Of a DNA stretch of 64,000 nt, positions 47,532 to 63,913 are shown piece by piece. The position numbers were made by a program, and so were the translations under genes. Source of the DNA: an uncultured Gammaproteobacteria bacterium. Lineage in GTDB: Bacteria; Pseudomonadota; Gammaproteobacteria; Ga0077536. Position 1 is the stretch's first letter. Each line of letters begins with the position of its first letter. Location of the stretch: positions 324 through 64,323 of the forward strand of contig CAZXQY010000003.1 of the NCBI GenBank assembly GCA_964642505.1, in the 5' to 3' direction. The notes under the pieces were generated by a model. It was not told the DNA's origin. It was given only the letters and a program-made list of their open reading frames with translations, and searched no databases.

Positions 47532-48935
47532 TTATTTTTTTCCACCTAAATAAAGGTCGGTTATTGTTCCGGAAGCAACCTCGGCAGCTAAGCCTATGGT
47601 TTCTACAAGCGTAGGATGAGGATGAATAGTCAATCCGAGATCCTCGAAATCACTTCCCATTTCTAAAGCCAGAGCAATTTCACCGATCAATTCACCGGCA
47701 TTTGCACCCACGATCCCACCACCTATGAGTCGTCCGCCATTTTTTTCAAATAATAACTTCGTAATACCTTCCTGACGTCCCATGGACAAGGAACGTCCAC
47801 TGGCCCCCCACGGAAATACTCCTTTTTTAAATTCTAAATCTGCCCGAAGAGCTTGGTCCTCAGTAAGACCCACCCATGCCAATTCCGGATCGGTGTAGGC
47901 TACCGAAGGAATTGACCGGGGTTCGAATACACTTTTTAATCCGACAGCCGATTCTGCCGCGACTTTCCCTTGACGAGACGCCTTATGGGCCAGCATAGGC
48001 TCACCCAAAACATCTCCAATAGCATAAATGTTAGGCATTGAAGTTTTCAGGCAATTATCCACGGAAATAAAGCCATTTTCAGATAAATTTACCCCCAAAG
48101 TCTCGAGCCCGATTGAATCCGTGTTTGGCACTCGCCCTATCGCCATCAGAATTTTGTCAAAAGCCGCTTTCGCCGGCGCTCCCTGCCCATCGAAAGTTAC
48201 GACGAGAGAATCCGGGTTAGGTTCCACTCCTACTACCCTGACTTCTTTGTAAATGGATTCTACTCTTTTTATAATCGACTTTTCTAAGGGAGCGACCAAA
48301 TCTATATCCGCACCGGACATAAGGTTAGGGGCAATCTCAACTATGGTTACTCGGCTTCCAAGTTCCGCGTATACCGAAGCCATCTCCAAGCCAATGATAC
48401 CCCCTCCTACAATTAATAGCCTTTCGGGAATATCCTTCAAACTTAAAGCTCCTGTCGAATCCATTATCCTAGGATCGTCGGCAGTCCCAGCCAATTTAGT
48501 AGGAAGAGAACCTGTAGCTATTATAGCCTTCTCAAAATTCAATTGAGTAGAGCCACCCATAGACTTGACTGTCAACTGATCAGTACCCGTAAAAAAGCCT
48601 ACTCCAGTCACGACATCAACTTGCCGCTTCTTAGCAAGGGCTCCCAAGCCTTTTGATAGCAGAGAGATCACCGAGTCCTTTTTGCTATTTAATTTATCCA
48701 AATCCAGATTTTTTTCTTCATAATAGACGCCGTAGTCGGCTATATCCCGTACGTCACTAATAACCTTAGCAACATGCAGAAGAGTTTTTGATGGGATACA
48801 ACCTACATTAAGACAAACACCTCCCAATTTGGGGTGCTTTTCCACCAAAGCCACTTTCAGACCAAGATCAGCAGCTCGAAAAGCCGCAGTATATCCTCCG
48901 GGGCCGGAGCCCAAAACCACTAAATCATAATTCAT
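47532..48935 (-). CDS. lpdA: Dihydrolipoyl dehydrogenase (E3)
   Basis: GSGPGGY...GGVCLNVGCIPSK redox-active disulfide motif, NAD-binding GGGIIG, and a C-terminal HPT dimerisation motif. Confidence 0.95.
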   Translation of the reverse strand: MNYDLVVLGSGPGGYTAAFRAADLGLKVALVEKHPKLGGVCLNVGCIPSKTLLHVAKVISDVRDIADYGVYYEEKNLDLDKLNSKKDSVISLLSKGLGALAKKRQVDVVTGVGFFTGTDQLTVKSMGGSTQLNFEKAIIATGSLPTKLAGTADDPRIMDSTGALSLKDIPERLLIVGGGIIGLEMASVYAELGSRVTIVEIAPNLMSGADIDLVAPLEKSIIKRVESIYKEVRVVGVEPNPDSLVVTFDGQGAPAKAAFDKILMAIGRVPNTDSIGLETLGVNLSENGFISVDNCLKTSMPNIYAIGDVLGEPMLAHKASRQGKVAAESAVGLKSVFEPRSIPSVAYTDPELAWVGLTEDQALRADLEFKKGVFPWGASGRSLSMGRQEGITKLLFEKNGGRLIGGGIVGANAGELIGEIALALEMGSDFEDLGLTIHPHPTLVETIGLAAEVASGTITDLYLGGKK

Positions 48936-49880: not shown

Positions 49881-52800
49881 TTACCAGACATCAGGATACC
49901 TGGACAGTCGTCTCTTTTTACGTGAGAGTTTGCTCGACCACAAACCCATCAAAAGCCAATCACCCGTATCTCTACGATCAATCACGGCGTCAACATCAAA
50001 GGCGGAGGCGACCGAAACACCCTTCCCCTTCGCATACATGCTTTCAAGTAGACTATCAAAAATCGATTTTCTTTCCCTTTCATTCATCGCACCATCTAGC
50101 TCCTTGCGAAAACCCAATTCCACCGCACCTTCTAAACCCATCGGGCCCATTTCTGAAGTAGGCCACCCTATCGTAAAAAAAGGCTGATGGAAACTACCAC
50201 CTGCCATAGCTTGTGCACCTAGACCATAGCCTTTACGCAAAACAATTGTAAAAAGAGGAACGGATAAATTGGCACTAGCCGTTATCAACCGGGAGCCTCT
50301 ACGCACGGAAGCCGTCTCCTCGCTGGCAGGGCCTACCATGAAGCCTGGAGTATCACATAACGAGATAACCGGCAGGCCAAAGCAATCGCATAATTGAAGA
50401 AACCTCGCCCCCTTCTCTCCCCCTTCGCCGTCGATGGCGCCTCCAAGGTGGGTAGGGTCATTCGCAATCAGCCCAAAAGAATGACCCTCTATTCGCAGTA
50501 GGATAGTAAGCAAACCGATTCCATAATCTCTTCGTAACTCAATAACCGAGCCCTCGTCGGCCAAATTTCTTATTAGCTTTCTGATGTCATATACCCGTAA
50601 TCGGTCCTCAGGGATTATGTGCCTGAGGATTCTTTGATCCGAAAAATCATAATGCTCTAATTTCCCTTGAAAATATCCGAGTATTTTTTTGGCCTTATCG
50701 GTAGCATCTGATTCATCTTTGCATAGCAAGTCGATAACACCATTCTTACTTTGCGTGTCGGACGGTCCGATATCTTCGGATTTGAATTTCCCCAACCCCC
50801 CGCTTTTATCTATCATCGCAGGTCCGGCCAGACCAATATTGGAGTTTTTAGTCGCTATCGTGATATCCGCACACCCGAAAATAACAGCGTTACCAGCGAA
50901 GCACCTACCTGAATTGATCGCTATCCTAGGCGCAATCCCCCCAAGTTGAGGCCAAGTGGCGAACGTCTTTATATCCAACCAACTCATGATTAGATCGTCA
51001 GTATCCACGTCACCGGGTCGACCTCCTCCTCCTTCCGTAAAAAAGACCACAGGAGTCTCCCAGTCACGCGCTAATTCGAAAATTCTATCCTTTTTTTTGT
51101 GGCTATTATGCCCCTGCGTACCGGCCAATACTGTGTAGTCATACGCCAACACGGCACACTTGGCCCTGTCCTCACCAAAATGTGTACTGTTCACGGTTCC
51201 AAAGCCAGCTACCAAGCCATCAGCAGGCGTCGCGATCTGCAGTTCGTCTACACTCCTTCTACGTCTTTGAGCTGCTATCGCCAAAGCTCCGTATTCCAAG
51301 AAACTATCCTCGTCACATAAGTCGTCGACATTCTCGCGCGCAGTCCTCGATCCGATTTTCCTTCGCTTAGCAACCGCCTCACCTCTCTGCTCGTCCATAA
51401 CCAAAGAGTGGCGAAAAATAACTTCCTTCAAATCAGCGCGAATATCGTCCAGATCGATTTTATCGTCACTGTGTATACTTTCGTTCATCCGGCTATCGAC
51501 TGCTAACTCGATGACTGGTTGACCTGTATCTATTACCTCACCCTCGTGTACCTTTATCCGCTTGATTAACCCGGACGCAGGCGCTTTTATTTCGTGATGC
51601 ATTTTCATCGCCTCGACAATTAAAAGCGTCTGTCCTTCCGAAACCACTTGATCTTCTTCTGATGGAATCTTTACTACGTTCCCCCTCAGCTGAGCTTCTA
51701 TCGTAACTAGCCCTGAGCCAGCGATTTTTGAATTTCTAACATCCGACCCGATTCTCTCTTGCTCGCTACCCTTCTTCCGTGAATCTTTTACAATTTCGTC
51801 TATATAAGAGGTCGTGAACTCCGCATTTACCACACCTTGCCGCTTCATAAGCTCCATTAGAAAATCAATATTTGTGTCTACTCCACGGACTTCGAATTCG
51901 GACAGCGCTCTAATGCCTTTACGGAGTAAAGACGACAAATCGCTTTCCAAGTTATGGACGATTAACTTGGCTAAAAGGGAATCAAATTCCCCACTTACTT
52001 CAAAACCCTCACGAACACCTGGGTCTACTCTGATTCCGATACCAAGCGGCGCTCGAAATTTAGACACCACCCCGGTCGACGGAAGAAAACTTCCTGCGGA
52101 ACTAAGTTTTTCCGCATTTATACGCATTTGGACGGCGCTGCCCGCAGGTTTGTCGCGCTTAGTTATCAGAACATCATCTAGCTTTTCACCTAATGCCAAT
52201 TGCAACTGAACTCGCGCCAAATCTATGCCATAAAGCATCTCCGTAATGGTATGTTCGACCTGCAATCTGGCATTTACTTCGATAAAATAGAATCTGCCTG
52301 ATCTTGGATCTACCATGAATTCCACCGTCCCGACACCCCTATATCCAACCGATCGTGCAAGACTCAAAGCGCCATCGAAAAGCTGACTTCTCATCTCTTC
52401 AGGTAGAGAAGGAGCCGGAGCTAACTCGACAATTTTTTGACGATTCCGTTGCAAACTACAGTCTCGCTCGCCTAAATGTTCCACTTGACCATTCCCGTCG
52501 CCTACCACTTGAACCTCAATGTGACGGGCACCTTCAAAAAACTCCTCGATATAAACGTCTCCTGAGCCAAAAGCATGTTTAGCTTCTTCACAAGCCAATA
52601 AAAACGCGGCTTCCAAATCGGTTTCGGCATCGATCACTCGAATACCTCTGCCTCCTCCTCCAGCAACCGCCTTGAGCACAAAAGATTTATTGGAGGGACA
52701 CTTCCGAATATAACTTTCCAAATCACCGGGATTTCGGAGCACGGCTGAACCATCTAATATTGGAAGCCCAACCTTCACGGCCTGAGATCGAGCCGATAAC

Positions 52801-53150
52801 TTATTTCCGAACAGCCTGAGCTGAGAAACGGTCGGGCCCACCCATGTGATACCAGCGTTCTCCATTTGCTCGGCAAAATCGGCACTCTCTGACAAAAATC
52901 CATAACCGGGATGAATAAGATTACAATCGAATTTCTGCGCCGCAGAAAGTATCGCTGACGTATTTAAATAGGCTGCCGCTCCTTGGCCAGAAATTTCCAC
53001 TGAATTTCCCTGCGAGAAAAGCACATGGGATGCAAACCTGTCCGACTCACAATGTACCGCAATAGCTTTCAGATTCAGATCATGTGCCGACTGCAAAACT
53101 CGCAACGCAATTTCGCCTCTATTAGCTACTAGGACCCGAGCATCAGACAT
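49881..53150 (-). CDS. Single-chain multi-domain biotin-dependent carboxylase (biotin carboxylase, then biotinyl/BCCP domain, then carboxyltransferase)
   Basis: N-terminal ATP-grasp BC domain (VLVANRGEIA...), a central biotinylation motif (LLIVEAMKMHHEIKAPASG), and a C-terminal crotonase-superfamily CT domain (acyl-CoA carboxylase β-like). Total length 1096 aa. Confidence 0.85.
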   Translation of the reverse strand: MSDARVLVANRGEIALRVLQSAHDLNLKAIAVHCESDRFASHVLFSQGNSVEISGQGAAAYLNTSAILSAAQKFDCNLIHPGYGFLSESADFAEQMENAGITWVGPTVSQLRLFGNKLSARSQAVKVGLPILDGSAVLRNPGDLESYIRKCPSNKSFVLKAVAGGGGRGIRVIDAETDLEAAFLLACEEAKHAFGSGDVYIEEFFEGARHIEVQVVGDGNGQVEHLGERDCSLQRNRQKIVELAPAPSLPEEMRSQLFDGALSLARSVGYRGVGTVEFMVDPRSGRFYFIEVNARLQVEHTITEMLYGIDLARVQLQLALGEKLDDVLITKRDKPAGSAVQMRINAEKLSSAGSFLPSTGVVSKFRAPLGIGIRVDPGVREGFEVSGEFDSLLAKLIVHNLESDLSSLLRKGIRALSEFEVRGVDTNIDFLMELMKRQGVVNAEFTTSYIDEIVKDSRKKGSEQERIGSDVRNSKIAGSGLVTIEAQLRGNVVKIPSEEDQVVSEGQTLLIVEAMKMHHEIKAPASGLIKRIKVHEGEVIDTGQPVIELAVDSRMNESIHSDDKIDLDDIRADLKEVIFRHSLVMDEQRGEAVAKRRKIGSRTARENVDDLCDEDSFLEYGALAIAAQRRRRSVDELQIATPADGLVAGFGTVNSTHFGEDRAKCAVLAYDYTVLAGTQGHNSHKKKDRIFELARDWETPVVFFTEGGGGRPGDVDTDDLIMSWLDIKTFATWPQLGGIAPRIAINSGRCFAGNAVIFGCADITIATKNSNIGLAGPAMIDKSGGLGKFKSEDIGPSDTQSKNGVIDLLCKDESDATDKAKKILGYFQGKLEHYDFSDQRILRHIIPEDRLRVYDIRKLIRNLADEGSVIELRRDYGIGLLTILLRIEGHSFGLIANDPTHLGGAIDGEGGEKGARFLQLCDCFGLPVISLCDTPGFMVGPASEETASVRRGSRLITASANLSVPLFTIVLRKGYGLGAQAMAGGSFHQPFFTIGWPTSEMGPMGLEGAVELGFRKELDGAMNERERKSIFDSLLESMYAKGKGVSVASAFDVDAVIDRRDTGDWLLMGLWSSKLSRKKRRLSRYPDVW

Positions 53151-53259
53151 ACAATCTTCCTTTAATATCAAGTGGTATAGACTAAGCTAGCTTATCTTCA
53201 CTCGACTTTCAAAATTTCGGGTTATTATAGCCGCCCTCATAACGGACTTAATAATGCGG

Positions 53260-53336
53260 TGGCGCGCCCGGAGAGATTCGAACTCCCGACCACCTGGTTC
53301 GAAGCCAGGTACTCTATCCAGCTGAGCTACGGGCGC
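53260..53336 (-). tRNA. tRNA-Arg (anticodon TCG), CCA encoded
   Basis: The reverse complement folds as GCGCCCG...anticodon loop CUUCGAA...CGGGCGC-G-CCA. The backbone is almost identical to E. coli argV. Confidence 0.85.
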
Positions 53337-53364
53337 GCAGAAGATAAATCATCTATTCACTATT

Positions 53365-53441
53365 TGGCGCGCCCGGAGAGATTCGAACTCCCGACCGCCT
53401 GGTTCGTAGCCAGGTACTCTATCCAGCTGAGCTACGGGCGC
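53365..53441 (-). tRNA. tRNA-Arg (anticodon ACG), CCA encoded
   Basis: Same scaffold as the neighbouring copy, but the anticodon loop reads CUACGAA and there is one variable-loop difference. Confidence 0.85.
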
Positions 53442-53639: not shown

Positions 53640-54398
53640 GTGAGGAAAAACATAGACATTAACTGCGATATGGGTGAAAGCTTTGGCAATTGGATTATGG
53701 GTGACGACGAAGGCATGATGTCTAGGATAACCACTGCGAACGTAGCGTGCGGCTTCCACGCGAGCGATCCGGTAACCATGGTCAAAACTGTGGCACTGGC
53801 TAAAAAACATGATGTTGTCGTGGGCTCACACCCTGGCCTGCCTGATCTTCTCGGGTTCGGTCGCCGGGCTATGAATATTACACCGGAAGATGCTTACGCC
53901 TATATGGTGTATCAAACCGGAGCTCTGGAGGCGACTCTTAAAACGCAAGGGATGAACCTCCATCATGTCAAACCTCATGGGGCTTTTTATTCGATCTTGA
54001 GAGACAACGAAGAAGTAGCATCTGCCGTTGCTGAAGCGATAGCTTCTTTGTCGACCGCACCCATCCTTTATTGGCCCGCTCCGACTTCTGCAGCGCTGCC
54101 CGCTGCGGCAAATAAGTTGGGAGTGAAAGTGGTAGGAGAAATCTATCCCGATCTACAGTACGCGTCTGACGGCTCCTTGATAATTCAACGAGAAAAACAT
54201 TTAACAGACACAGTTTTCGCTTCAAAACAAGTTGAGCGGTACGTTGAAACAGGAAAAGTGGAAGCCACAGATGGAAGCTTGTTGCAGCTGGATGCTGAAA
54301 GCATCTGCATCCATGGGGACGGGCCTAATGCGACCGAAGTGGCCGATGCCATACGAAAAAGGCTACACGATTTGGGCTGTGAAATTAACGCCGCGTGA
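53640..54398 (+). CDS. pxpA: 5-oxoprolinase subunit A (LamB/YcsF family)
   Basis: DINCDMGES...ACGFHASDP...HVKPHGA motifs. GTG start. Confidence 0.85.
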   Translation: MRKNIDINCDMGESFGNWIMGDDEGMMSRITTANVACGFHASDPVTMVKTVALAKKHDVVVGSHPGLPDLLGFGRRAMNITPEDAYAYMVYQTGALEATLKTQGMNLHHVKPHGAFYSILRDNEEVASAVAEAIASLSTAPILYWPAPTSAALPAAANKLGVKVVGEIYPDLQYASDGSLIIQREKHLTDTVFASKQVERYVETGKVEATDGSLLQLDAESICIHGDGPNATEVADAIRKRLHDLGCEINAA

Positions 54399-54430
54399 CG
54401 CTAGGATTCTAATTAAAAAGGCGGATTATT

Positions 54431-55462
54431 ATGAAATTTGGTTTATTGTTTTCACACCAAGTCCCTCCTACCTCTGGGGGGTCTTGGTCAACCCCGTATA
54501 AGGATATGCTTGAATGCCTCCCTTATGCAGAGGAATTGGGATATCAATCCGCTTTTCACGCCACCCACCATGCCCAGAAAGACGGACTCTGCCCGGCACC
54601 TATGGTGGCCTGTGCGGCGGCGGCGGCTGTCACTAAAACCATGAGAATAGGGACCGGTGTATTACTCGTTCCACTCTACGCACCACTAAAATTGGCAGAA
54701 GATATAGCGGTACTAGATAACGTCTCTAATGGCCGGTTCGTGTTTGGCGTCGCTCCGGGCTACGTGGCCAAAGAGTTTGAAGCACACCAGATTCCCAGAT
54801 CAGAAAGAGTGGGCCGATTTGAAGAGGCGCTGGACCTGATGACAATGGCTTGGACGTCAGAGAACTTTGAGTTCAATGGTAAATACTATAAAGTTCCGGA
54901 AACGCAACTAACCCCAAAACCGCAACAGTCTCCCCACCCACCCATTTGGTATGGTGTCTCCGCCACTAATTCCTTGAAAAGAGCCGCTCGTCGCAAGGCG
55001 GTACAAATTATGTCTCCACGACATGGCCCAGAAGAATTGGTCCAGCATTTTAAACCCTACGAAGAAGAGGCCGCCAAAATTGGATGGAAAATTCCTGAAA
55101 GACCAATAATCCGCAACGTATTTGTGGCCGAAACGCATACCAAAGCAGAGGAAATTGCCGGGCCTGCTCTTAAGTACTTGTACACGGAGTTATACGGAGC
55201 GGCCTCCGCAGCAGGGGAAAGGGTCCTCAAAGCTGCGGACGGCTCTATTATCACGGATAAAGATTCAGTCACTTTTGATACCTTCAAAAATCGGTATATT
55301 GTTGGAGACCCCAATTTCGCGATAGAACAACTATCCTTGTATCGCGATGCTGTAGATCCTAGTGAAGTCGTCTGCTGGATGCATTTACCTGGAATAAGCG
55401 GAGCCAACGCAAGAAAATCGATGGAGTTATTCGCGAAAGAAGTGATGCCTCACTTCAGTTGA
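54431..55462 (+). CDS. LLM-class flavin-dependent oxidoreductase
   Basis: Luciferase-like TIM-barrel signature (GRFVFGVAPG...). Confidence 0.75.
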   Translation: MKFGLLFSHQVPPTSGGSWSTPYKDMLECLPYAEELGYQSAFHATHHAQKDGLCPAPMVACAAAAAVTKTMRIGTGVLLVPLYAPLKLAEDIAVLDNVSNGRFVFGVAPGYVAKEFEAHQIPRSERVGRFEEALDLMTMAWTSENFEFNGKYYKVPETQLTPKPQQSPHPPIWYGVSATNSLKRAARRKAVQIMSPRHGPEELVQHFKPYEEEAAKIGWKIPERPIIRNVFVAETHTKAEEIAGPALKYLYTELYGAASAAGERVLKAADGSIITDKDSVTFDTFKNRYIVGDPNFAIEQLSLYRDAVDPSEVVCWMHLPGISGANARKSMELFAKEVMPHFS

Positions 55463-55479
55463 GAGCTCTGGAACACGAG

Positions 55480-56448
55480 TTAAAAAAGGTCACGAATGCG
55501 TTCCAGTCGACCCTCTTCATCAAGCCTCGCCTGAAGAGCCTCTTCCATTGAAACTTTTACAAATTTTACAGGGGTATTTGGTTGTAGTTGTCCAAGAATA
55601 TCCATGTCTGCAGAAATAACCGCTCCGATCTGAAAATAGCCGCCGGCAGACACCGCGTCCCTATGTAATACGATAGGTTCAAGCCCCGAAGGAATTTGAA
55701 CAGAACCATACGGATATGGACTATCAACTATGTTGGAAGGATCTGAACCAGCGCCAAAGGGTTGATCTCTAGGCTCAAACTCCATTGGGCGACCTCCTGA
55801 AAATCGAACTCCCATCCGATCTGCCTCGGTAGAAACTACCCAACGATCTTCAAAAAAGCCCTCCCCCGAGGTTTTTGTCAAACGGTGCCAGAATAAACCT
55901 GGCATAACTCTCAAATTAGCGGCCTCTCCCATGGTGCGTCTTAGCTCTTCTGGAATATATCGGCATTTACTTTTTAGATCACCCTGACCACAATGCAGGA
56001 CATCTTCAGCTACCAGTATTCTACCGTGAAAGCCTCCCAGCTGCCCTACCAAATATGTCGACCGACTGCCCAGCACCAAAGGTACATCTACCCCACCCGA
56101 CACAGCTATATAGATCCGCGCTCCACCCTTGAGGTAGCCAAATTCCAAAACTTGTCCTGCCTTAACTTCGATAGCAGTCCAAGTCTGATGCTCCTTTCCA
56201 TCCAAGCACACGGGAAGGTCAGCCCCAGTGACAGACACGAGGGTATCTGTATCAAACAGTAATCTAGGACCGATGTAGGGGCTCTCTATACAGGCCGCCG
56301 ACTCGTCGTTGCCAACCAAGAGATTAGCCACACGCAACGCGAAGCGATCCATTGCCCCTCCGATAGGAATCCCCAACTGATAATATCCAGGTCTCCCTAG
56401 ATCCTGAATCGTTGCTGCCAATCCTGCTTCCAAAATTTTAATTGCCAT
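55480..56448 (-). CDS. pxpC: 5-oxoprolinase subunit C (KipA/allophanate-hydrolase-subunit-2 family)
   Basis: MAIKILEAGLAATIQDLGRPGYYQLGIPIGGAMD N-terminus and cyclophilin-like fold family. Confidence 0.8.
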   Translation of the reverse strand: MAIKILEAGLAATIQDLGRPGYYQLGIPIGGAMDRFALRVANLLVGNDESAACIESPYIGPRLLFDTDTLVSVTGADLPVCLDGKEHQTWTAIEVKAGQVLEFGYLKGGARIYIAVSGGVDVPLVLGSRSTYLVGQLGGFHGRILVAEDVLHCGQGDLKSKCRYIPEELRRTMGEAANLRVMPGLFWHRLTKTSGEGFFEDRWVVSTEADRMGVRFSGGRPMEFEPRDQPFGAGSDPSNIVDSPYPYGSVQIPSGLEPIVLHRDAVSAGGYFQIGAVISADMDILGQLQPNTPVKFVKVSMEEALQARLDEEGRLERIRDLF

Positions 56449-57313
56449 ATAGGGCACCTATGAGACCAGCATTATATCCATCCCTATCAGCCAAAAAAGC
56501 AGACAAATCAAAACGTATCTCCACTCGGGGTGGCTCGAACAAATTGTTCCGAACCAGATCCACTATATGCTCATATTCTTCCACATCTATAGCACGAAAC
56601 TTTACAATGTCTCCGGTACGGAAAAATACCATCGAACCTTCCAGATAAGATTGATGACAATCGGGATTGAAAATTTGCATAGGGGTTATTCCAAACATTT
56701 GATACCCCCCAGCACCTCGCACGGCATAGATAGCTGTAAAACAACCACCATGCCCAATTGTATGCCTGGGAGTATCAGTTCTTGGCCGGACATATTTGGG
56801 TACTTCAATCTGTCTAGAGCGTTCCACCATTTGGTACAATCCCGGGACGCCGCAAACAAACCCAAGAAGTGAAACAAACCAAGGGGAACCGTGATGGCTT
56901 TCTATAAACTCCGTTACAGATGAAAAACCATTGAGCCTAGCAGCATATTCTAGGTCTGTTGAATCAGGATCTTGATGTCGATCTCTAAAACTATTCATCG
57001 TTTCTCTCGTCCAAGGATCTTCGTAAAAAACTGGCACCTCAACAATCCTCGTGTCTATTGAATTACCAGTTAACCCAGATTCATTATCGATTCTCTTTAT
57101 TTCTTTTAATAATTCTTCCGGGCTAATAAGACCCGGATCAAATCGGACCATATACGTGGTGTTTACCGCGCAAATCTCTGATACTCCCGTAATCTTGTGC
57201 TTTCGTATCAACTCGGCAGCATTCATGCTTTTAAAAAATGCCTCTAAAGACATTTCCTCGGAACACTCCCCTAAAAGGTGTTCATCTGCTCCGAAAGTAA
57301 AACGCGTCTCCAT
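56438..57313 (-). CDS. pxpB: 5-oxoprolinase subunit B (KipI/allophanate-hydrolase-subunit-1 family)
   Basis: AHS1/KipI family. Its 3' end overlaps the pxpC start, consistent with translational coupling. Confidence 0.75.
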   Translation of the reverse strand: METRFTFGADEHLLGECSEEMSLEAFFKSMNAAELIRKHKITGVSEICAVNTTYMVRFDPGLISPEELLKEIKRIDNESGLTGNSIDTRIVEVPVFYEDPWTRETMNSFRDRHQDPDSTDLEYAARLNGFSSVTEFIESHHGSPWFVSLLGFVCGVPGLYQMVERSRQIEVPKYVRPRTDTPRHTIGHGGCFTAIYAVRGAGGYQMFGITPMQIFNPDCHQSYLEGSMVFFRTGDIVKFRAIDVEEYEHIVDLVRNNLFEPPRVEIRFDLSAFLADRDGYNAGLIGALYGN

Positions 57314-57410
57314 CCTGTTATCTCCTACTTCAGTAACTTAGTAAGACTATAATATTAGAGTTCCTCTTTATAGGATTTAATAGAAGCCAGGGATTGTCAA
57401 TCTGGCGCAA

Positions 57411-59300
57411 TTGAAAGAAAATTTGCCATCGCTTCAGTTATTTAATATCTTATTGGACAAAATCACCGAGCGCCATCCCCGTTGTGTAGGAAATGGAGGG
57501 CGCCAGCAAAGGACACCGCAAGGGGGACTGTCGAGCGTGAAGCCGACAAATGTACGTGATCCAGATTACTTCCACAAGGTAGTAGATTGCCAGTGGGCTT
57601 GCCCTGCTCATACTCCCGTGCCGGAATATATCCGTCTGATCGCTGAAGAACGGTACGCAGACGCTTATATGGTTAACTGGGAATCGAATGTTTTCCCAGG
57701 AATACTTGGTAGGACTTGCGACAGACCCTGTGAGCCCGCCTGCCGGCGAGGGAGAGTTGAAGAAAAACCCGTAGCAATATGCAGACTGAAAAGGGTCGCT
57801 GCGGATTTCAAAGGGGATATTTCAGAGCGACTTCCTAGAGAGCCGAATACAAAAAACAATCATAAAATAGCTTGTGTGGGCGGCGGCCCCGCCTCACTCA
57901 CCGTCGCTCGAGACCTCTCTAGAATAGGTTATAGAGTTACAATCCTCGACTCTGAAAGGCAACTGGGAGGTATGATAAGAAGCCAGATTCCCAAGTTCCG
58001 TCTGCCGGAAGAAATTATAGACGAAGAGATAAACTACGTCTTGAAACTGGGTATAAATTTCGAAAGCCGTTGGGTGGAATCTCTGCAGCACTTGCTGGAA
58101 GAAGATTATGACGCGATTTTCGTGGGTACAGGCGCTCCACGTGGTAAAGACCTTGAGATACCTGGACATGTGGAGGCCGCGGACAATATACATATAGGCA
58201 TTGACTGGTTATCTTCTGTCGCGTTTGGTCATATCTCTCGGATTGGAAAAAGAGTCATCGTTCTCGGTGGCGGCAACACGGCTATGGACTGTTGCCGCTC
58301 CTCAATGCGCTTAGGGGGGGAATCCGTAACGGTAGTTGTTAGATCAGGTTTTGAAGAAATGAAAGCCTCCGAGTGGGAGAAAGAAGATGCCATGCATGAG
58401 GGAATCCCGATTCGGAACTACCTAGTTCCTAAAGCCTTCTTAATCGACCAGGGCACTCTCTCTGGCATGCAATTTGAGAAAGTTAGAGCCGAGTATATCG
58501 GCAAAAAAAGAAAGCTTATACCCACTGGAGAACCAGACGAAATCATTGCGTGCGATGACGTGTTAATTGCCATCGGTCAGGAAAATGCTTTCCCTTGGAT
58601 AGAGAGAGATATTGGAATCGAATTCGACGATTGGGGACTACCAAAACTGGACCCGAACTCTCTACAATCCACTCGTCCAGAAATCTTCTTCGGTGGAGAT
58701 GCCGCGTTCGGCCCCGAGAATATAATTTGGGCTGTAGCTCATGGACATGAGGCGGCTATTTCTATCGATAAATTTCTGACTAATAAGTCAGTTAAGAAAC
58801 GTCCAAAACCAAATGTTCAGATAGAACCCCAGAAAATGGGAATTCATGAATGGAGCTATGATAACGACATTTCCAGTGGTCCGAGACAAAAAGTGCCCCT
58901 GGAGCGACTAAAAAAAGCTCTCTCAAACATAAAAGTCGAAGTGGAAAAAGGTTTTCCCACTTCGACTGCGTGGACAGAAGCGCAAAGATGCTTAAATTGC
59001 GATGTGCAAACCGTTTTCTCTGACAATCTTTGTATAGAATGTGATGCTTGTACAGATATTTGCCCTACCGATTGTATCAACTTCACTGATAACGCTGCAG
59101 AAAATAATCTCCGGAAACAGTTGCGAGCACCTGCCGATGACTTAGATCAAGATCTATATGTATCAGGTAAACTTCCAACCGGATTAGTAATGGTGAAAGA
59201 CGAAAACGTTTGCCTCCATTGTGGCCTATGCGCCGAACGATGCCCCACGGGAGCTTGGGATATGAAAAAATATCTGATCAACATCGAACAGGTGCGCTAA
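57411..59300 (+). CDS. GltD/SudA-family FAD/NAD(P)H oxidoreductase fused to a C-terminal 2x[4Fe-4S] ferredoxin domain (candidate electron-transfer partner of KorAB)
   Basis: N-terminal Cys cluster like the glutamate synthase small subunit (NVFPGILGRTCDRPCEPAC), a dinucleotide fold (KIACVGGGPASL), a second GGGNTAMD motif, and two CxxCxxCxxxCP ferredoxin motifs at the C-terminus. TTG start. Confidence 0.75.
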   Translation: MKENLPSLQLFNILLDKITERHPRCVGNGGRQQRTPQGGLSSVKPTNVRDPDYFHKVVDCQWACPAHTPVPEYIRLIAEERYADAYMVNWESNVFPGILGRTCDRPCEPACRRGRVEEKPVAICRLKRVAADFKGDISERLPREPNTKNNHKIACVGGGPASLTVARDLSRIGYRVTILDSERQLGGMIRSQIPKFRLPEEIIDEEINYVLKLGINFESRWVESLQHLLEEDYDAIFVGTGAPRGKDLEIPGHVEAADNIHIGIDWLSSVAFGHISRIGKRVIVLGGGNTAMDCCRSSMRLGGESVTVVVRSGFEEMKASEWEKEDAMHEGIPIRNYLVPKAFLIDQGTLSGMQFEKVRAEYIGKKRKLIPTGEPDEIIACDDVLIAIGQENAFPWIERDIGIEFDDWGLPKLDPNSLQSTRPEIFFGGDAAFGPENIIWAVAHGHEAAISIDKFLTNKSVKKRPKPNVQIEPQKMGIHEWSYDNDISSGPRQKVPLERLKKALSNIKVEVEKGFPTSTAWTEAQRCLNCDVQTVFSDNLCIECDACTDICPTDCINFTDNAAENNLRKQLRAPADDLDQDLYVSGKLPTGLVMVKDENVCLHCGLCAERCPTGAWDMKKYLINIEQVR

Positions 59301-59310
59301 TTAAATAATA

Positions 59311-61116
59311 ATGGGACTAATTAACGATTTCGTCATAAAGTTCGCAAACGTCAACGGCTCGGGCTCGGCTTCTGCCAACACTTTGTTTACCAAAGCGATA
59401 CTCAGAATGGGAATCCCGGCCACACCGCGAAATATCTTCCCCTCAAACATACAAGGGTTGCCTACATGGTACGAAGTAAGAGTGTCGGCAGAAGGTTGGC
59501 TAGGAAGGAAAGAAGGAATCGATTTCCTCGTAGCCATGAATCCGGAGACAATAGAACAAGATATCAGTGAATTAAAAGCAGGAGGGAACCTCCTTTACGA
59601 CTCGACTAAATCGTTGCCTGTGAAATACCGTCGGGAGGATATAAACTCATATGGACTACCATTCATGTCTTTATGCAACGAAAAATACGACGATCCTCGT
59701 CAACGCCAGCTTTTCAAAAATATAATGTATATTGGTTCTCTTTCCGCTTTAGTAGGGATGAAAAAGGAAATTCTAGTTCGATTGATTACAGAACTCTATG
59801 GAGATAAAAAACCACTTATAGAATCAAATCTAGAGGCTTTATCGACAGGGTTCGAGGCGGCGGAATCAAATTTCACCACTCCTTCCACAATTTCTATTCC
59901 TGCCGGCAATAAAATTGGAGAGAAAATTTTCATTGAAGGAAATGAGGCCGCGGCGTTAGGCGCCCTATACGCAGGAGCCACGGTAGCCGCTTGGTACCCA
60001 ATCACTCCATCATCCTCTTTGGCCGAAGCATTCGAAAGATACTGTAAAAAATATCGTAAAGATCCCAAAACTAAAAAAGACCGCTATGCAATTCTACAAG
60101 CCGAAGACGAACTCGCTTCCATCGGGATGGTTTTGGGAGCTAGTTGGAATGGGGCAAGAGCTTTTACCTGCACATCTGGGCCTGGCATCTCCTTGATGCA
60201 AGAATTTCTAGGTTTCGGCTATTTCGCTGAAATACCTGCCGTCGTCTTTAACGTGCAACGCGGCGGCCCATCGACAGGCATGCCTACGAGAACGCAGCAA
60301 TCTGATTTATTGTCTTGCGCCTATGCCTCACATGGTGATACAAAGCACGTCATGCTTTTCCCTGAAGATCCAAAAGAATCATTTGATATGAGTGCACTAG
60401 CTTTCGATATCGCCGACCGCCTTCAAACACCGGTATTCGTAATGCTTGATCTTGATATCGGAATGAATGAAAGATTATGCGAACCTTTAGCTTGGCACGA
60501 CAAACGTTGTTACGACCGAGGCAAAGTATTGACCGACGACGCCATCCAAGATTTAGAGACGTTCGGCAGATATCTCGATATAGATAGGGATGGTATCTCC
60601 TATCGAACCTACCCAGGTACACATACCAACCTCGGATCCTATTTTACCAGGGGGACGACAAAGGATCAGTACGCAAACTATAGTGAGTCTCCTCAGGACT
60701 ATACTGAAAACATGGAGAGACTAACTAAGAAACACCAAACCGCGGTACGTTTTGTTCCAACACCTGTGGTGCGGTACCAGCATGGTCAAAGGGAAATCGG
60801 AGCAGTTTATTTTGGCTCTACATCTCCCGCCATGAAAGAAGCATTAGCTTTGCTATCGGCCGAAAACTTTACCCTAAATGATTTGAGAATCAGGTCCTAC
60901 CCTTTTTCACAGGAAATCCAAGAATTCATTGAGAGCCACCGAATTATTTTTATAATAGAGCAAAATAGAGACCATCAAATACGCACGCTGTTGGTCAACG
61001 AATTAAATCTCTCACAGAATAACTTGGTGTCAGTACTACACTACGATGGAACCCCAATCACAGCCCAAATAATAAAAGAAAAAATCATGGCGCACCTAAA
61101 AGAACAAGCAACTTAA
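59311..61116 (+). CDS. korA: 2-oxoacid:ferredoxin oxidoreductase alpha subunit (fused γ/α, KorA)
   Basis: FVIKFANVNGSGSASAN N-terminus (γ-domain) followed by a pyrimidine-binding α-domain. Length 601 aa. Confidence 0.85.
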   Translation: MGLINDFVIKFANVNGSGSASANTLFTKAILRMGIPATPRNIFPSNIQGLPTWYEVRVSAEGWLGRKEGIDFLVAMNPETIEQDISELKAGGNLLYDSTKSLPVKYRREDINSYGLPFMSLCNEKYDDPRQRQLFKNIMYIGSLSALVGMKKEILVRLITELYGDKKPLIESNLEALSTGFEAAESNFTTPSTISIPAGNKIGEKIFIEGNEAAALGALYAGATVAAWYPITPSSSLAEAFERYCKKYRKDPKTKKDRYAILQAEDELASIGMVLGASWNGARAFTCTSGPGISLMQEFLGFGYFAEIPAVVFNVQRGGPSTGMPTRTQQSDLLSCAYASHGDTKHVMLFPEDPKESFDMSALAFDIADRLQTPVFVMLDLDIGMNERLCEPLAWHDKRCYDRGKVLTDDAIQDLETFGRYLDIDRDGISYRTYPGTHTNLGSYFTRGTTKDQYANYSESPQDYTENMERLTKKHQTAVRFVPTPVVRYQHGQREIGAVYFGSTSPAMKEALALLSAENFTLNDLRIRSYPFSQEIQEFIESHRIIFIIEQNRDHQIRTLLVNELNLSQNNLVSVLHYDGTPITAQIIKEKIMAHLKEQAT

Positions 61117-61124
61117 TCCTAAAA

Positions 61125-62180
61125 ATGACTTACATTAAAAAACCAAAATTCGCCCATCCCAAAACCACCCTTAATGATTTGGGCTTCGCCCGCAGAGATT
61201 ACGAAGGAAAGATTTCCACACTTTGCGCCGGATGCGGGCACGACTCTATCAGTGCCGCAGTAGCTAGCGCTTTTTTTGAACTTTCGGTAGCACCTCACAG
61301 AGTGGCCAAACTATCTGGTATAGGTTGTTCATCGAAAACTCCCGCCTATTTCCTAAATCATTCTCATGGATTAAATAGTGTACACGGCAGAATGCCGTCT
61401 GTATTAACGGGCGCAAATTTGGCAAACAAAGATATGCTTTACCTCGGAATATCCGGCGACGGTGATTCAGCCTCTATAGGACTTGGGCAATTCGCACACG
61501 CCCTTCGCAGAGGCGTAAACATGACCTATGTTGTCGAGAATAACGGGGTTTATGGACTGACGAAGGGCCAATTCTCTGCTACCGCGGACAAAGGTTCTGC
61601 AAGCAAGAGGGGTATTGTCAATGAGAGTAATCACGTAGACCTTGTCGCCTTAGCGCTCCAATTAGGTTCTACCTTTGTGGCCAGAAGCTTTTCTGGAGAT
61701 AAAAAACAACTTATCCCGATCTTGAAGGCCGCGATTGCGCATCGAGGGGCTGCTCTTATCGACGTGATCAGCCCTTGTGTAGCATTTAACAATCATTCTG
61801 GATCTACTAAAAGCTACGATTTCGTTAGAGAACATAATGTAGCTGTAAACAAACTCGATTTCATCACTGCAAAAAAACCAATGGAAGCAGACTATAAAGA
61901 AGGAAGCTCCCATTCTGTCATCGGCCACGACGGAACCACCTTCAAACTACGAAAGATAAAACAAGAACATGACCCGCGTGATAGAATGGCCGCAATCAAT
62001 AATCTTGAATACCATTCGGCTAGGGGAGAAATACTCACTGGACTAATCTTTGAAGATCCTGACAGTCTAGAATTACATCAACATTTAAATACAGTAGATG
62101 TGCCGCTTAACTCCCTAAACGAGGAAGAGTTATGTCCAGGTTCTTCGATCTTGGACGAAATCAATAATAGGTCCCGCTAA
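61125..62180 (+). CDS. korB: 2-oxoacid:ferredoxin oxidoreductase beta subunit (TPP-binding, KorB)
   Basis: CAGCGHD and GDGDSASIG TPP-binding motifs. Confidence 0.85.
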   Translation: MTYIKKPKFAHPKTTLNDLGFARRDYEGKISTLCAGCGHDSISAAVASAFFELSVAPHRVAKLSGIGCSSKTPAYFLNHSHGLNSVHGRMPSVLTGANLANKDMLYLGISGDGDSASIGLGQFAHALRRGVNMTYVVENNGVYGLTKGQFSATADKGSASKRGIVNESNHVDLVALALQLGSTFVARSFSGDKKQLIPILKAAIAHRGAALIDVISPCVAFNNHSGSTKSYDFVREHNVAVNKLDFITAKKPMEADYKEGSSHSVIGHDGTTFKLRKIKQEHDPRDRMAAINNLEYHSARGEILTGLIFEDPDSLELHQHLNTVDVPLNSLNEEELCPGSSILDEINNRSR

Positions 62181-62191
62181 TATTTGAAGCT

Positions 62192-62587
62192 ATGAAAATC
62201 TCTGTGCCAATATCTGTGGGAGAACTTCTAGATAAAATTTCGATCCTGCAAATAAAAAATGAAAAAGTTAAAGACCAAGTTAAATTAGTGAACATTCGTC
62301 ATGAATTAGAATTACTAGAAAGAACAATTACCGAATTCGAAATAGAGGATTTAGTCTGTCCAAAAATCCTTACAAAGCTTCGAACCGAATTAATAAATGT
62401 AAATCAGGAGTTATGGTCGATAGAGGACAAATTGCGGGTTTTGGAGACCAAAAGAGAATTCGGCGTTGATTTCATAACTGCGGCACGAAAGGTATACGAA
62501 TACAACGACCACCGGGCAAAAATAAAACGGAAAATAAACGAATTGACTGGCTCCGAATTGATAGAGGAGAAGTATTATTCGGAGTAA
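62192..62587 (+). CDS. Conserved hypothetical coiled-coil protein
   Basis: 131-aa charged α-helical protein. Its stop is 8 nt before the region encoding the heptosyltransferase N-terminus. Confidence 0.5.
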   Translation: MKISVPISVGELLDKISILQIKNEKVKDQVKLVNIRHELELLERTITEFEIEDLVCPKILTKLRTELINVNQELWSIEDKLRVLETKREFGVDFITAARKVYEYNDHRAKIKRKINELTGSELIEEKYYSE

Positions 62588-62654
62588 TTGTTCTCGAAGT
62601 GTACTAGTTTATGTCACGGGCGATAGGATTGGAGACGGAATACTGAAGTTTCCG

Positions 62655-63590
62655 GTGTTGCGAGCTTTTAAGGCAGTCAACCCGCACACTAAACTAATAT
62701 GGGTCACAGGAAAGAACCCTTCCGTTTTCCTGCGGGGTTTGTCGGCACTTACCCGGAATATATTCGATGAGATTCACGAAAAAACAGGTCTTGCTTCTTT
62801 TTCCAATAGGAACGGATTCCGTTTTAACACTGAAATCGAATCAATACTTTGTACCGAAACAAATTTAATTGATACCCTTCTTTTAAGGCGATTAGGAGCA
62901 GAAACTTTCATATCGCCTGCGGCAAAATTTTCTTTCTCCTCGAAGAAGCCTGAACCAGGGTACGACCAACTGCCGATATACGGAAAATTTTTAGCTTTAA
63001 TGTCTCTAGTCAGTGAAAAACCCTTATCCCCGGATTTAAGCATACCGATCCCAAAAGAATACTTAAATTTTTCCACAAAACTATTTAAAAAAAACCGACA
63101 CTATGTGGGATTGAGCCCCGGAGCTGGTTCCAACGCAAAACAATGGCCTCTCAAATTCTTTGTTAAGATAGCAAAAGTCCTGACTTCTCAAAATGTAACT
63201 CCGACTTTCTTTTTAGGCCCCATGGAAGAACATCTTAAAGAGAAGCTGTGCAAACAAATACCTGCTGCCATATTCCCCGAAAGCCAACTTGAAGTAGGGC
63301 TCCCTAAGTCACCGCTACTGACTATTGCTTTAGCTCGAAATTTAGATTTTTCATTGGTAAACGATTCTGGAGGCGGTCAGCTAGTCGCTGCGGGAGGCAA
63401 GAAAACAATCACTCTGTTCAATGCAAAAAGGGGAGCTAAGTTTAAGTCACCCTTTTGCGAGCAAATAGCTCTCAATGCGACTAGTTACAACGCGACTAAA
63501 GTCAAATCGATTCCGTACCGACCAGTCCTCGAGGCAGTTGAAAAAGCGCTCGGCGAATTGCTAAAAAATCCACTGCAACAACGAGTTTGA
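62655..63590 (+). CDS. Glycosyltransferase family 9 (LPS heptosyltransferase-like). The true start probably lies upstream, near 62600.
   Basis: GT9 C-terminal nucleotide-sugar binding region. The in-frame upstream codons encode the conserved N-terminal VTGDRIGDGILKFPVLRAFK motif, but no ATG/GTG/TTG precedes it. Confidence 0.65.
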   Translation: MLRAFKAVNPHTKLIWVTGKNPSVFLRGLSALTRNIFDEIHEKTGLASFSNRNGFRFNTEIESILCTETNLIDTLLLRRLGAETFISPAAKFSFSSKKPEPGYDQLPIYGKFLALMSLVSEKPLSPDLSIPIPKEYLNFSTKLFKKNRHYVGLSPGAGSNAKQWPLKFFVKIAKVLTSQNVTPTFFLGPMEEHLKEKLCKQIPAAIFPESQLEVGLPKSPLLTIALARNLDFSLVNDSGGGQLVAAGGKKTITLFNAKRGAKFKSPFCEQIALNATSYNATKVKSIPYRPVLEAVEKALGELLKNPLQQRV

Positions 63591-63670: not shown

Positions 63671-63913
63671 ATGCAAAAACTTGAGATAATGTCCCCTCTA
63701 CCAGGTACCTTCTACAGGAAACCATCACCGGACGCTGCGCCCTACAAAAGTAACGGTGACTCGGTAGAAAAAGGAGATGTTATCGGGCTAGTTGAAGTTA
63801 TGAAAAATTTCCACGAAATCAAGGCCCAAGATTCTGGGGTAAACATCAAATTCTCGATAGAGGACGCTGACCCAGTGCAACCGGGCCAATCTATAGCTAC
63901 CTTAGAAAAATAA
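63671..63913 (+). CDS. Standalone biotinyl (BCCP C-terminal-like) domain protein
   Basis: 80 aa, aligning with the E. coli AccB C-terminal domain (SPLPGTFYRKPSPDA...GLVEVMKNFHEIKA). The lysine of the A/VMK motif is present but the flanking residue is Asn instead of Met. Confidence 0.7.
   Translation: MQKLEIMSPLPGTFYRKPSPDAAPYKSNGDSVEKGDVIGLVEVMKNFHEIKAQDSGVNIKFSIEDADPVQPGQSIATLEK

Follow-up and report, generated by a model that had tools for sequence, protein, structure and literature searches.

A flavoprotein-korA-korB module of an uncultured gammaproteobacterium probably encodes a 2-oxoacid:NAD(P)+ oxidoreductase of the Aromatoleum type

Introduction

When the genes of a two-subunit 2-oxoacid:ferredoxin oxidoreductase (OFOR) follow directly on the gene of an iron-sulfur flavoprotein, does the enzyme pass its electrons to a pyridine nucleotide instead of to free ferredoxin? 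The question is raised by a flavoprotein-korA-korB locus in a 64,000-nt stretch of contig CAZXQY010000003.1 (the window, by which we mean the whole stretch) from an uncultured gammaproteobacterium. A sequence-only reading of this locus had likened it to the three-subunit NADP-dependent enzyme of Azoarcus. Our analysis makes it likely that the three genes encode one complex, a 2-oxoacid:NAD(P)+ oxidoreductase and most probably a 2-oxoglutarate:NADP+ oxidoreductase (KGOR) of the type of Aromatoleum/'Azoarcus' evansii.

Results

Three adjoining genes and their starts

The locus consists of three co-directional open reading frames (ORFs) on the forward strand (Table 1), separated by gaps of 10 nt (flavoprotein/korA) and 8 nt (korA/korB). 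Coordinates and gaps agree with the sequence-only reading, and only its length of 629 aa for the first gene had to be corrected. Homologues of the flavoprotein (about 602 aa) start with 'MKPTD', which aligns with residue 43 of the 629-aa ORF; a Shine-Dalgarno sequence, AAGGGGGA, stands upstream of a GTG at 57537; and 587 aa is also the length in an independent gene call on the contig's ENA copy. On these grounds we place the start at this GTG, so that the gene most likely encodes 587 aa and the 629-aa form is just the longest possible ORF. Residue numbers given below for flavoprotein domains and cysteines follow the 629-aa numbering.

KorA and KorB form a core of the two-subunit OFOR type

KorA joins a POR domain (gamma, residues 16-182) to a POR_N domain (alpha, residues 217-382) in Pfam searches and passes the NCBIfam model TIGR03710 ('2-oxoacid:acceptor oxidoreductase subunit alpha') with 556.6 bits against a cut-off of 482.75, while KorB has the TPP_enzyme_C domain of OFOR beta subunits. 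A korA with fused gamma and alpha domains followed by korB, as had been proposed, is therefore borne out. In KorA we found the YPITP motif at 229-233 (with T232), the carboxylate-binding R317 (the equivalent of Arg344a, alpha-subunit numbering) and T322; in KorB, the thiamine diphosphate motif GDG...NN at 111-140, K71, L145 and the CoA-contacting K147. Four cysteines of KorB (C34, C37, C68 and C218) align with the [4Fe-4S] ligands Cys12, 15, 46 and 197 of the Sulfolobus tokodaii OFOR (StOFOR) and are kept in 56-59 of 59 orthologues. No Fer4 domain was detected in either protein by a Pfam scan. To judge from these features, KorAB is an OFOR of the (ab)2 type, with a single [4Fe-4S] cluster and without the internal ferredoxin domain V. 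The solved structure closest to KorA is that of the 2-oxoglutarate-specific 2-oxoglutarate oxidoreductase of Magnetococcus marinus (MmOGOR, 6N2N; 1.6e-60), followed by the S. tokodaii OFORs; the closest to KorB are StOFOR1 and 6N2N. Enzymes of the (ab)2 type have one [4Fe-4S] cluster and no domain V, and the large pocket that this leaves between domains III and VI is the docking site of an external dicluster ferredoxin (PMC5020499).

A literature search returned no residue-level description of 2-oxoglutarate binding in MmOGOR, and we therefore turned to the StOFOR mutagenesis data for specificity. In StOFOR1, Lys49b of the beta subunit is required for 2-oxoglutarate (PMC5020499), and its equivalent is kept in KorB as K71. 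The position of Asp468a is an invariant Thr here, followed by Ser/Thr and then by Arg/Lys; 2-oxoglutarate-specific enzymes have Leu at that position. Across 59-67 orthologues, which come from three classes of Proteobacteria, the core and specificity positions of KorA and KorB vary little or not at all. Such an invariant pocket points to one conserved substrate and is compatible with 2-oxoglutarate, without proving it.

A GltD-like flavoprotein with a ferredoxin domain of its own

The flavoprotein contains every element that had been described for it, namely an N-terminal cysteine cluster (Fer4_20), two dinucleotide-binding folds (Pyr_redox_2) and two C-terminal [4Fe-4S] motifs (Fer4_7). Six cysteines of the N-terminal iron-sulfur domain are invariant (C60, C64, C103, C107, C111 and C124). 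The Fer4_20 match lacks the first 30 profile positions, and the usual 'EA.RC..C' element is found after the flavin domains, as an RCLNC motif that aligns with RCMSC of NfnA (9N5U). This motif probably supplies the two cysteines that the N-terminal domain is without; together with C527 and C530 there would be eight, enough for two [4Fe-4S] clusters. The C-terminal domain has two canonical ferredoxin motifs, CIECDACTDICP and CLHCGLCAERCP, whose cysteines are kept in all homologues or in more than 90% of them, even where identity falls to 30%. A complex of the three proteins would thus hold five clusters per protomer: two of the GltD type, two in the C-terminal domain and one in KorB. Given the E-values and the conservation, the domain identities of the flavoprotein, KorA and KorB are not due to chance.

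At the expected 2'-phosphate site of the nucleotide-binding domain lies the motif 'VVVRS', which is invariant in the korAB-linked family including Aromatoleum. This is not the 'YRR' motif, and a preference for NADP+ is for this reason taken from the literature and not from the sequence.

An AlphaFold model (AF2) of the flavoprotein, built on an alignment of diverse representatives at 30-74% identity, reached a pLDDT of 90.9 and a pTM of 0.91; an earlier model from 45 homologues, all at least 70% identical, had a mean pLDDT of 55.8 and was discarded. In fold comparisons the model comes closest to the NADP(H)-binding, GltD-like modules of NfnABC (9BOV, 9N5U) and StnABC (StnC, 8OH5), with a TMq of about 0.72, and next, in order, to NfnI-L, Xfn, NfnB, dihydropyrimidine dehydrogenase (DPD) and GltD. 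Over the NfnABC, StnC, NfnI-L, NfnB, GltD and DPD folds the TMq ranges from 0.60 to 0.73 with E-values of 1e-30 to 1e-46. Sequence searches agree, with matches of 1.5e-76 to 1e-42 to PDB sequences of the same GltD-like group.

The three genes form a conserved, self-contained module

Gene neighbourhoods were compared in data with one genome per species, which gave 80 loci, 63 of them informative in that at least 3 kb of downstream DNA was available. By a strict criterion, korA immediately 3' of the flavoprotein gene together with korB was found in 60 of these 63. Two of the three exceptions have korA split into reading-frame pieces in the assembly and one has no detectable korB, so that on re-inspection korA lies downstream in 63/63 loci and korB is present in 62/63. 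Two alphaproteobacterial metagenome-assembled genomes (MAGs; loci L011 and L073) have 1.2-1.8 kb of extra DNA between korA and korB. When all flanking ORFs were clustered no other conserved neighbour appeared, only out-of-frame shadow ORFs and lineage-specific genes. Flavoprotein, korA and korB are thus a self-contained three-gene module, and their linkage is no accident.

To find the boundary of the family, 1.84 billion representatives, clustered at 50% identity, were searched exhaustively. Among full-length relatives of the flavoprotein, identity drops quickly to 56%, 48% and 46% and then to 42% or less. The representatives at 56%, 48% and 46% are each directly followed by POR/POR_N and TPP_enzyme_C genes. 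Those at 42%, 38% and 37% share the Fer4_20, Pyr_redox_2 and Fer4_7 architecture, but the genes after them encode Rieske, cytochrome b and cytochrome c proteins. By this measure the korAB-linked flavoproteins are a well-bounded orthologous family. Co-occurrence with korAB, named beforehand as the test on which the proposal could fail, therefore turned out to be conserved, down to 46% identity. In the more distant loci (L089-L091) the genes for multi-haem cytochromes c lie downstream, EB_dh (haem b) genes are nearby, and sigma-54 regulators occur in two of the three; the arrangement has the look of a Rieske/cytochrome b complex with an NAD(P)H module joined to it. Taken together, the two settings suggest that flavoproteins of this architecture are NAD(P)H modules that can be plugged into one redox partner or another.

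By score, homologues of the flavoprotein make up more than 8000 protein clusters; the best 120 are 69-93% identical to it. The database names of these 120 are uninformative or mistaken ('FAD-dependent oxidoreductase', 'glutamate synthase', 'formate dehydrogenase (NADP+) beta subunit'), and in the module such names stand beside '2-oxoacid:acceptor oxidoreductase'. At least 592 species representatives encode a relative, and most of these are aerobes among the Alpha-, Beta- and Gammaproteobacteria; those listed include Bradyrhizobium, Caulobacter, Phenylobacterium, Roseomonas, Dankookia, Variovorax, Burkholderiales, Lysobacteraceae and Rhodanobacteraceae. In view of this spread the presence of the module here is not unusual, and the earlier remark that it is noteworthy in an aerobe loses force.

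We also considered other identities for the flavoprotein. Its scores against the GltD models are 169.5 bits for TIGR01317 (cut-off 447.7) and 202.8 for TIGR01318 (cut-off 482.95), and no gltB adjoins it here or in the 80 loci. PreT/DPD was rejected as well: there is no PreA/DHODH-like domain for flavin mononucleotide and no such neighbour, and the match to DPD covers only its N-terminal iron-sulfur/FAD/NADPH half. With scores so far below the GltD cut-offs and neither a PreA nor a GltB partner nearby, the protein is not a PreT or GltD orthologue; clustering with PreT was what the sequence-only reading had named as fatal to its proposal. An NfnAB/NfnABC transhydrogenase has the NADPH module alone in common with it, as no NfnA-small or NuoEF-like gene is present in the operon or conserved nearby.

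An orthologous module in Aromatoleum

A tblastn search of annotated plasmids located the module on plasmid 2 of Aromatoleum aromaticum EbN1, in the same gene order and with overlapping junctions. The EbN1 genes encode an FAD-dependent oxidoreductase of 595 aa and the alpha (622 aa) and beta (351 aa) subunits of a 2-oxoacid:acceptor oxidoreductase. Full-length identities to the flavoprotein, KorA and KorB of the window are 64, 60 and 66%, all motifs are common to both sets, and the masses are close (65.0/67.8/37.5 kDa in EbN1; 65.8/67.3/37.9 kDa in the window). On this evidence the window module is orthologous to the Aromatoleum module, the comparison being with the A. aromaticum proteins. The EbN1 module lies on a conjugative plasmid, directly 3' of genes for an FAD-dependent oxidoreductase (590 aa), two acyl-CoA dehydrogenase family proteins and a CBS-domain protein. 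This setting suggests a mobile module that particular catabolic pathways may recruit.

'Azoarcus' evansii is now placed in the genus Aromatoleum. From this organism Ebenau-Jehle, Boll and Fuchs reportedly purified, in 2003 (J Bacteriol 185:6119), a three-subunit 2-oxoglutarate:NADP+ oxidoreductase that is said to be specific for 2-oxoglutarate. Its subunits reportedly have masses of 63, 62 and 37 kDa, which the values predicted for the window fit. The literature that we found on KorC, korABC and KGOR consisted of passing citations only, and the 'korABC(D)' of the tubeworm-symbiont papers is an unrelated four-subunit 2-oxoglutarate oxidoreductase. In one such source the flavoprotein subunit of the A. 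evansii enzyme is assigned to the GltD/NfnB superfamily, next to NsoC and DsrL (PMC10134865). The likeness to the Azoarcus enzyme that had been proposed is accordingly supported at the level of sequence, through the A. aromaticum module.

Genomic surroundings

None of the genes around the module (pxpABC, the luciferase-like oxidoreductase, the fused biotin carboxylase, DUF6165 and GT9) is conserved with it, and pxpB, DUF6165 and GT9 are absent from all 80 genome loci. Downstream, a DUF6165 gene begins 11 nt past the stop codon of korB, with a GT9 heptosyltransferase-like gene 67 nt beyond it; near-identical metagenome contigs (L081-L084) have the same arrangement, and in another locus (L087; flavoprotein 46% identical) a GT9 gene lies about 3 kb upstream. 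Upstream, the window carries 5-oxoprolinase-type genes in a group divergent from the kor operon and interrupted by the luciferase-like oxidoreductase, and a fusion protein that looks like a single-chain enzyme of the acyl-CoA carboxylase type, with a tandem pair of tRNA-Arg genes between them. Still further upstream, a stand-alone dihydrolipoyl dehydrogenase gene, with no E1 or E2 gene adjoining, lies beside a gene resembling class I polyhydroxyalkanoate synthases; it points to lipoate-dependent complexes in this organism as well. There is no sucA-sized ORF within the 64-kb window, which is too short a stretch to judge sucAB in the genome.

A sigma-70 promoter candidate lies 5' of the revised flavoprotein start, over the TTG at which the 629-aa form begins. 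It is no more than a candidate, because promoter-like matches in the region are not above shuffled expectation; the promoter and terminator scans gave fewer matches than shuffled sequence. No FNR/Anr-like box was found in the region upstream of the operon, the window-wide count of such boxes is not above chance, and Rfam and tRNA scans returned nothing related to the kor operon.

Table 1. Positions of the module, its parts, related loci and neighbouring genes (window coordinates unless a locus is named)
Feature	Position	Strand	Remarks
KorC-like iron-sulfur flavoprotein, revised	57537-59300	+	GTG start; 587 aa; 65.8 kDa; GltD/NfnB-type core and C-terminal ferredoxin domain
Flavoprotein ORF1, longest form	57411-59300	+	TTG start; 629 aa
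korA, 2-oxoacid:acceptor oxidoreductase alpha with fused gamma domain (III-I-II)	59311-61116	+	601 aa; 67.3 kDa
korB, beta subunit (domain VI)	61125-62180	+	351 aa; 37.9 kDa
N-terminal iron-sulfur domain	57585..57812	+	Pfam Fer4_20, residues 59-134, 6.4e-19; profile positions 31-108 only
FAD and NAD(P)H dinucleotide-binding domains	57864..58745	+	Pfam Pyr_redox_2, residues 152-445, 6.6e-24; GGGPAS and GGGNTAMD motifs
RCLNC motif (C527/C530), 3' of flavin domains	58986..59000	+	invariant in three alignments, even at 30% identity
C-terminal 2x[4Fe-4S] ferredoxin domain	59031..59255	+	Pfam Fer4_7 dicluster, residues 541-615, 2.5e-09
Shine-Dalgarno sequence AAGGGGGA	57520-57527	+	9 nt 5' of GTG 57537; direct sequence reading
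Candidate sigma-70 promoter TTGTCA-17 nt-GAAAAT	57394..57422	+	9/12 consensus positions; weak evidence
EbN1 plasmid 2 module	L092 105-4853
Rieske/cytochrome b-linked flavoprotein relatives (37-42% identity)	L089 5001-6851; L090 5001-6848; L091 3071-5032
DUF6165 and GT9 genes	62192-63590		DUF6165 protein of 131 aa
Biotinyl/lipoyl-domain protein	63671-63913		80 aa
pxpC and pxpB	55480-57313	-
Luciferase-like (LLM class) oxidoreductase	54431-55462
pxpA	53640-54398	+	5-oxoprolinase-type genes span 53640-57313
Tandem tRNA-Arg pair	53260-53441	-	anticodons TCG and ACG
Fused biotin carboxylase (12-460) and mmdA-like carboxyltransferase (597-1079)	49881-53171	-	1096 aa; biotinyl carrier motif EAMKM
Dihydrolipoyl dehydrogenase	47532-48935	-	TIGR01350, 479.5 bits, above cut-off
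Class I polyhydroxyalkanoate synthase-like gene	45651-47420

Discussion

Proposed electron path

We propose that KorA and KorB would form the catalytic core, with thiamine diphosphate held between them. The cofactor would decarboxylate 2-oxoglutarate and, with CoA, yield succinyl-CoA and CO2, two electrons leaving through the single [4Fe-4S] cluster of KorB. The C-terminal 2x[4Fe-4S] domain of the flavoprotein most likely takes the role of the internal ferredoxin domain V and would sit in the domain III/VI pocket, and electrons would then run from this domain to the GltD-type pair of [4Fe-4S] clusters, to FAD and on to NADP+. The net outcome would be an essentially irreversible, lipoate-independent and NADPH-producing alternative to the 2-oxoglutarate dehydrogenase step, with no free ferredoxin.

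The standard potentials (E0') are about -520 mV for succinyl-CoA + CO2/2-oxoglutarate and -320 mV for NADP+/NADPH. Because the first couple lies about 200 mV below the second, oxidation is favoured by roughly 39 kJ/mol. The sequence-only reading had coupled 2-oxoacid turnover to NAD(P)H without free ferredoxin in either direction: the oxidative coupling is supported by the sequences, and reductive carboxylation driven by NADPH is unlikely across a gap of about 200 mV.

Weighing the alternatives

Several observations count against a 2-oxoglutarate:NADP+ oxidoreductase. No curated model fixes the substrate, since NCBIfam places KorA at the subfamily level only and KorB falls below every curated cut-off; in the pocket, Ser45, K71 and L145 match those of StOFOR1, a Sulfolobus enzyme of broad specificity, which would allow pyruvate and other 2-oxoacids; and 'VRS' stands in the flavoprotein where NfnB and GltD have the NADPH motif 'YRR', so that NAD+ is possible from the sequence. 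The orthology rests on the A. aromaticum plasmid copy, itself putative in function, and KorAB of Mycobacterium tuberculosis works without such a flavoprotein, so that the core does not need one (PMC2773412). The points on NCBIfam and on the pocket speak for an enzyme of the same architecture but with another substrate (pyruvate, a branched-chain or aromatic 2-oxoacid, or 2-oxoadipate) or with a broad one, that is, a general 2-oxoacid:NAD(P)+ oxidoreductase. We consider this unlikely: the best solved relative of KorA is specific for 2-oxoglutarate, the acidic Asp468a of StOFOR has given way to the invariant Thr and a conserved Arg or Lys while Lys49b is kept, and a pocket that is invariant across Alpha-, Beta- and Gammaproteobacteria implies one central substrate.

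The flavoprotein might instead be a separate NAD(P)H:ferredoxin-type or GltD/PreT-like enzyme that is merely co-transcribed, with KorAB relying on free ferredoxin or flavodoxin. The two-subunit KorAB enzymes of Sulfolobus and M. tuberculosis do work with free ferredoxin, and the complex of three proteins is proposed here from sequence. Yet the three genes keep an almost absolute order in different classes and at identities down to 46%, and their junctions are tight or overlap; GltB, PreA and NfnA partners are lacking, scores lie far below the GltD equivalog cut-offs, and sister proteins that share the architecture are joined to a redox complex too, though a different one. We give this reading little credence, and still less to a reverse mode in which the complex would be an NADPH-driven 2-oxoglutarate synthase for CO2 fixation or anaplerosis, perhaps through flavin-based electron bifurcation. 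What recommends it is that the best fold matches of the flavoprotein are the NADPH modules of bifurcating NfnABC, StnABC and NfnI, and that MmOGOR, the structure closest to KorA, is an enzyme of the reverse tricarboxylic acid (TCA) cycle (PMC11304471). Against it, the reaction is uphill on textbook potentials, by about 39 kJ/mol; a second, high-potential acceptor branch would be needed for bifurcation, and no NfnA-small, NuoEF-like or other partner lies in the module or is conserved near it; and aerobic heterotrophs dominate the host range. A 2-oxoglutarate-oxidising, NADP+-reducing complex is therefore the reading that we retain as probable.

Relation to known systems

With the (ab)2 OFORs, such as StOFOR1/2 (5B46-5B48), MmOGOR (6N2N), the M. 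tuberculosis KOR (Rv2454c/Rv2455c) and Hydrogenobacter KorAB, which are two-subunit enzymes that reduce free ferredoxin, the core encoded in the window shares the III-I-II alpha and VI beta layout, YPITP, the Arg344a equivalent, GDG...NN, the four cysteines of a single [4Fe-4S] cluster and the lack of domain V. What sets it apart is the gene just upstream, for a dedicated flavoprotein that brings a ferredoxin domain of its own. The mycobacterial two-subunit KOR is aerotolerant, and NADP+ was not reduced in M. tuberculosis extracts (PMC2773412). This fits a flavoprotein that is the element conferring coupling to pyridine nucleotides.

The flavoprotein itself shares the iron-sulfur, FAD and NADPH domain fold of NfnB/NfnI-L, the NfnA of NfnABC, StnC, GltD and the N-terminal half of DPD. 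In contrast to these proteins it has an extra C-terminal dicluster ferredoxin domain, its 'RCxxC' lies after the flavin domains and not at the N-terminus, and it comes without an NfnA-small, StnAB, GltB or PreA partner; nothing indicates bifurcation. Of the same design are DsrL and NsoC, GltD-like flavoproteins with extra ferredoxin domains that carry NAD(P)H electrons to or from a partner enzyme; one study groups them in clades neighbouring the KGOR flavoprotein (PMC10134865). Their partners differ (DsrAB and a sulfide dehydrogenase-like enzyme), and the likeness is one of description.

An OFOR core hard-wired to a flavoprotein, with a pyridine nucleotide as acceptor, is also known from the pyruvate:NADP+ oxidoreductase (PNO) of Euglena and Cryptosporidium and from the NADH-dependent phenylglyoxylate dehydrogenase PadEFGHI of A. 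evansii. The flavin modules of these enzymes are unrelated (cytochrome P450 reductase-like in PNO), and subunit compositions differ. NCBIfam matches of the window proteins to PadG and PadI are weak (4.5e-15 and 6.4e-4) and far below the cut-offs. The A. evansii KGOR reportedly has the same combination of a two-subunit-type OFOR core with an iron-sulfur flavoprotein (about 63 kDa) of the GltD/NfnB superfamily. The host is different, the window module being from the MAG of an uncultured organism with low GC (about 44%) that has no connection with anaerobic benzoyl-CoA metabolism.

Significance for aerobic Proteobacteria

The module is thus not a new type of system but a known kind of enzyme that is widespread in aerobic Proteobacteria and poorly annotated, and the present analysis links a large and highly conserved gene module to an enzyme that was biochemically characterised in 2003. 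If the proposed function is correct, many aerobes of the Alpha-, Beta- and Gammaproteobacteria, with Bradyrhizobium, Caulobacter, Variovorax and marine MAGs among them, would have a second, NADPH-producing route from 2-oxoglutarate to succinyl-CoA, which metabolic reconstructions now ignore or misread as ferredoxin-dependent and as an 'anaerobic' or reverse-TCA marker. We tentatively raise the further possibility, in our view doubtful but worth stating, that the module is a widespread but overlooked TCA-cycle variant of aerobic Proteobacteria, an oxygen-tolerant, lipoate-independent and NADPH-yielding oxidation of 2-oxoglutarate in which the ferredoxin domain of the flavoprotein takes the structural place of the OFOR domain V, and not a niche enzyme of anaerobic aromatic degraders. 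In that case the step would run alongside 2-oxoglutarate dehydrogenase or replace it, for example under lipoate or oxygen limitation or when NADPH demand is high.

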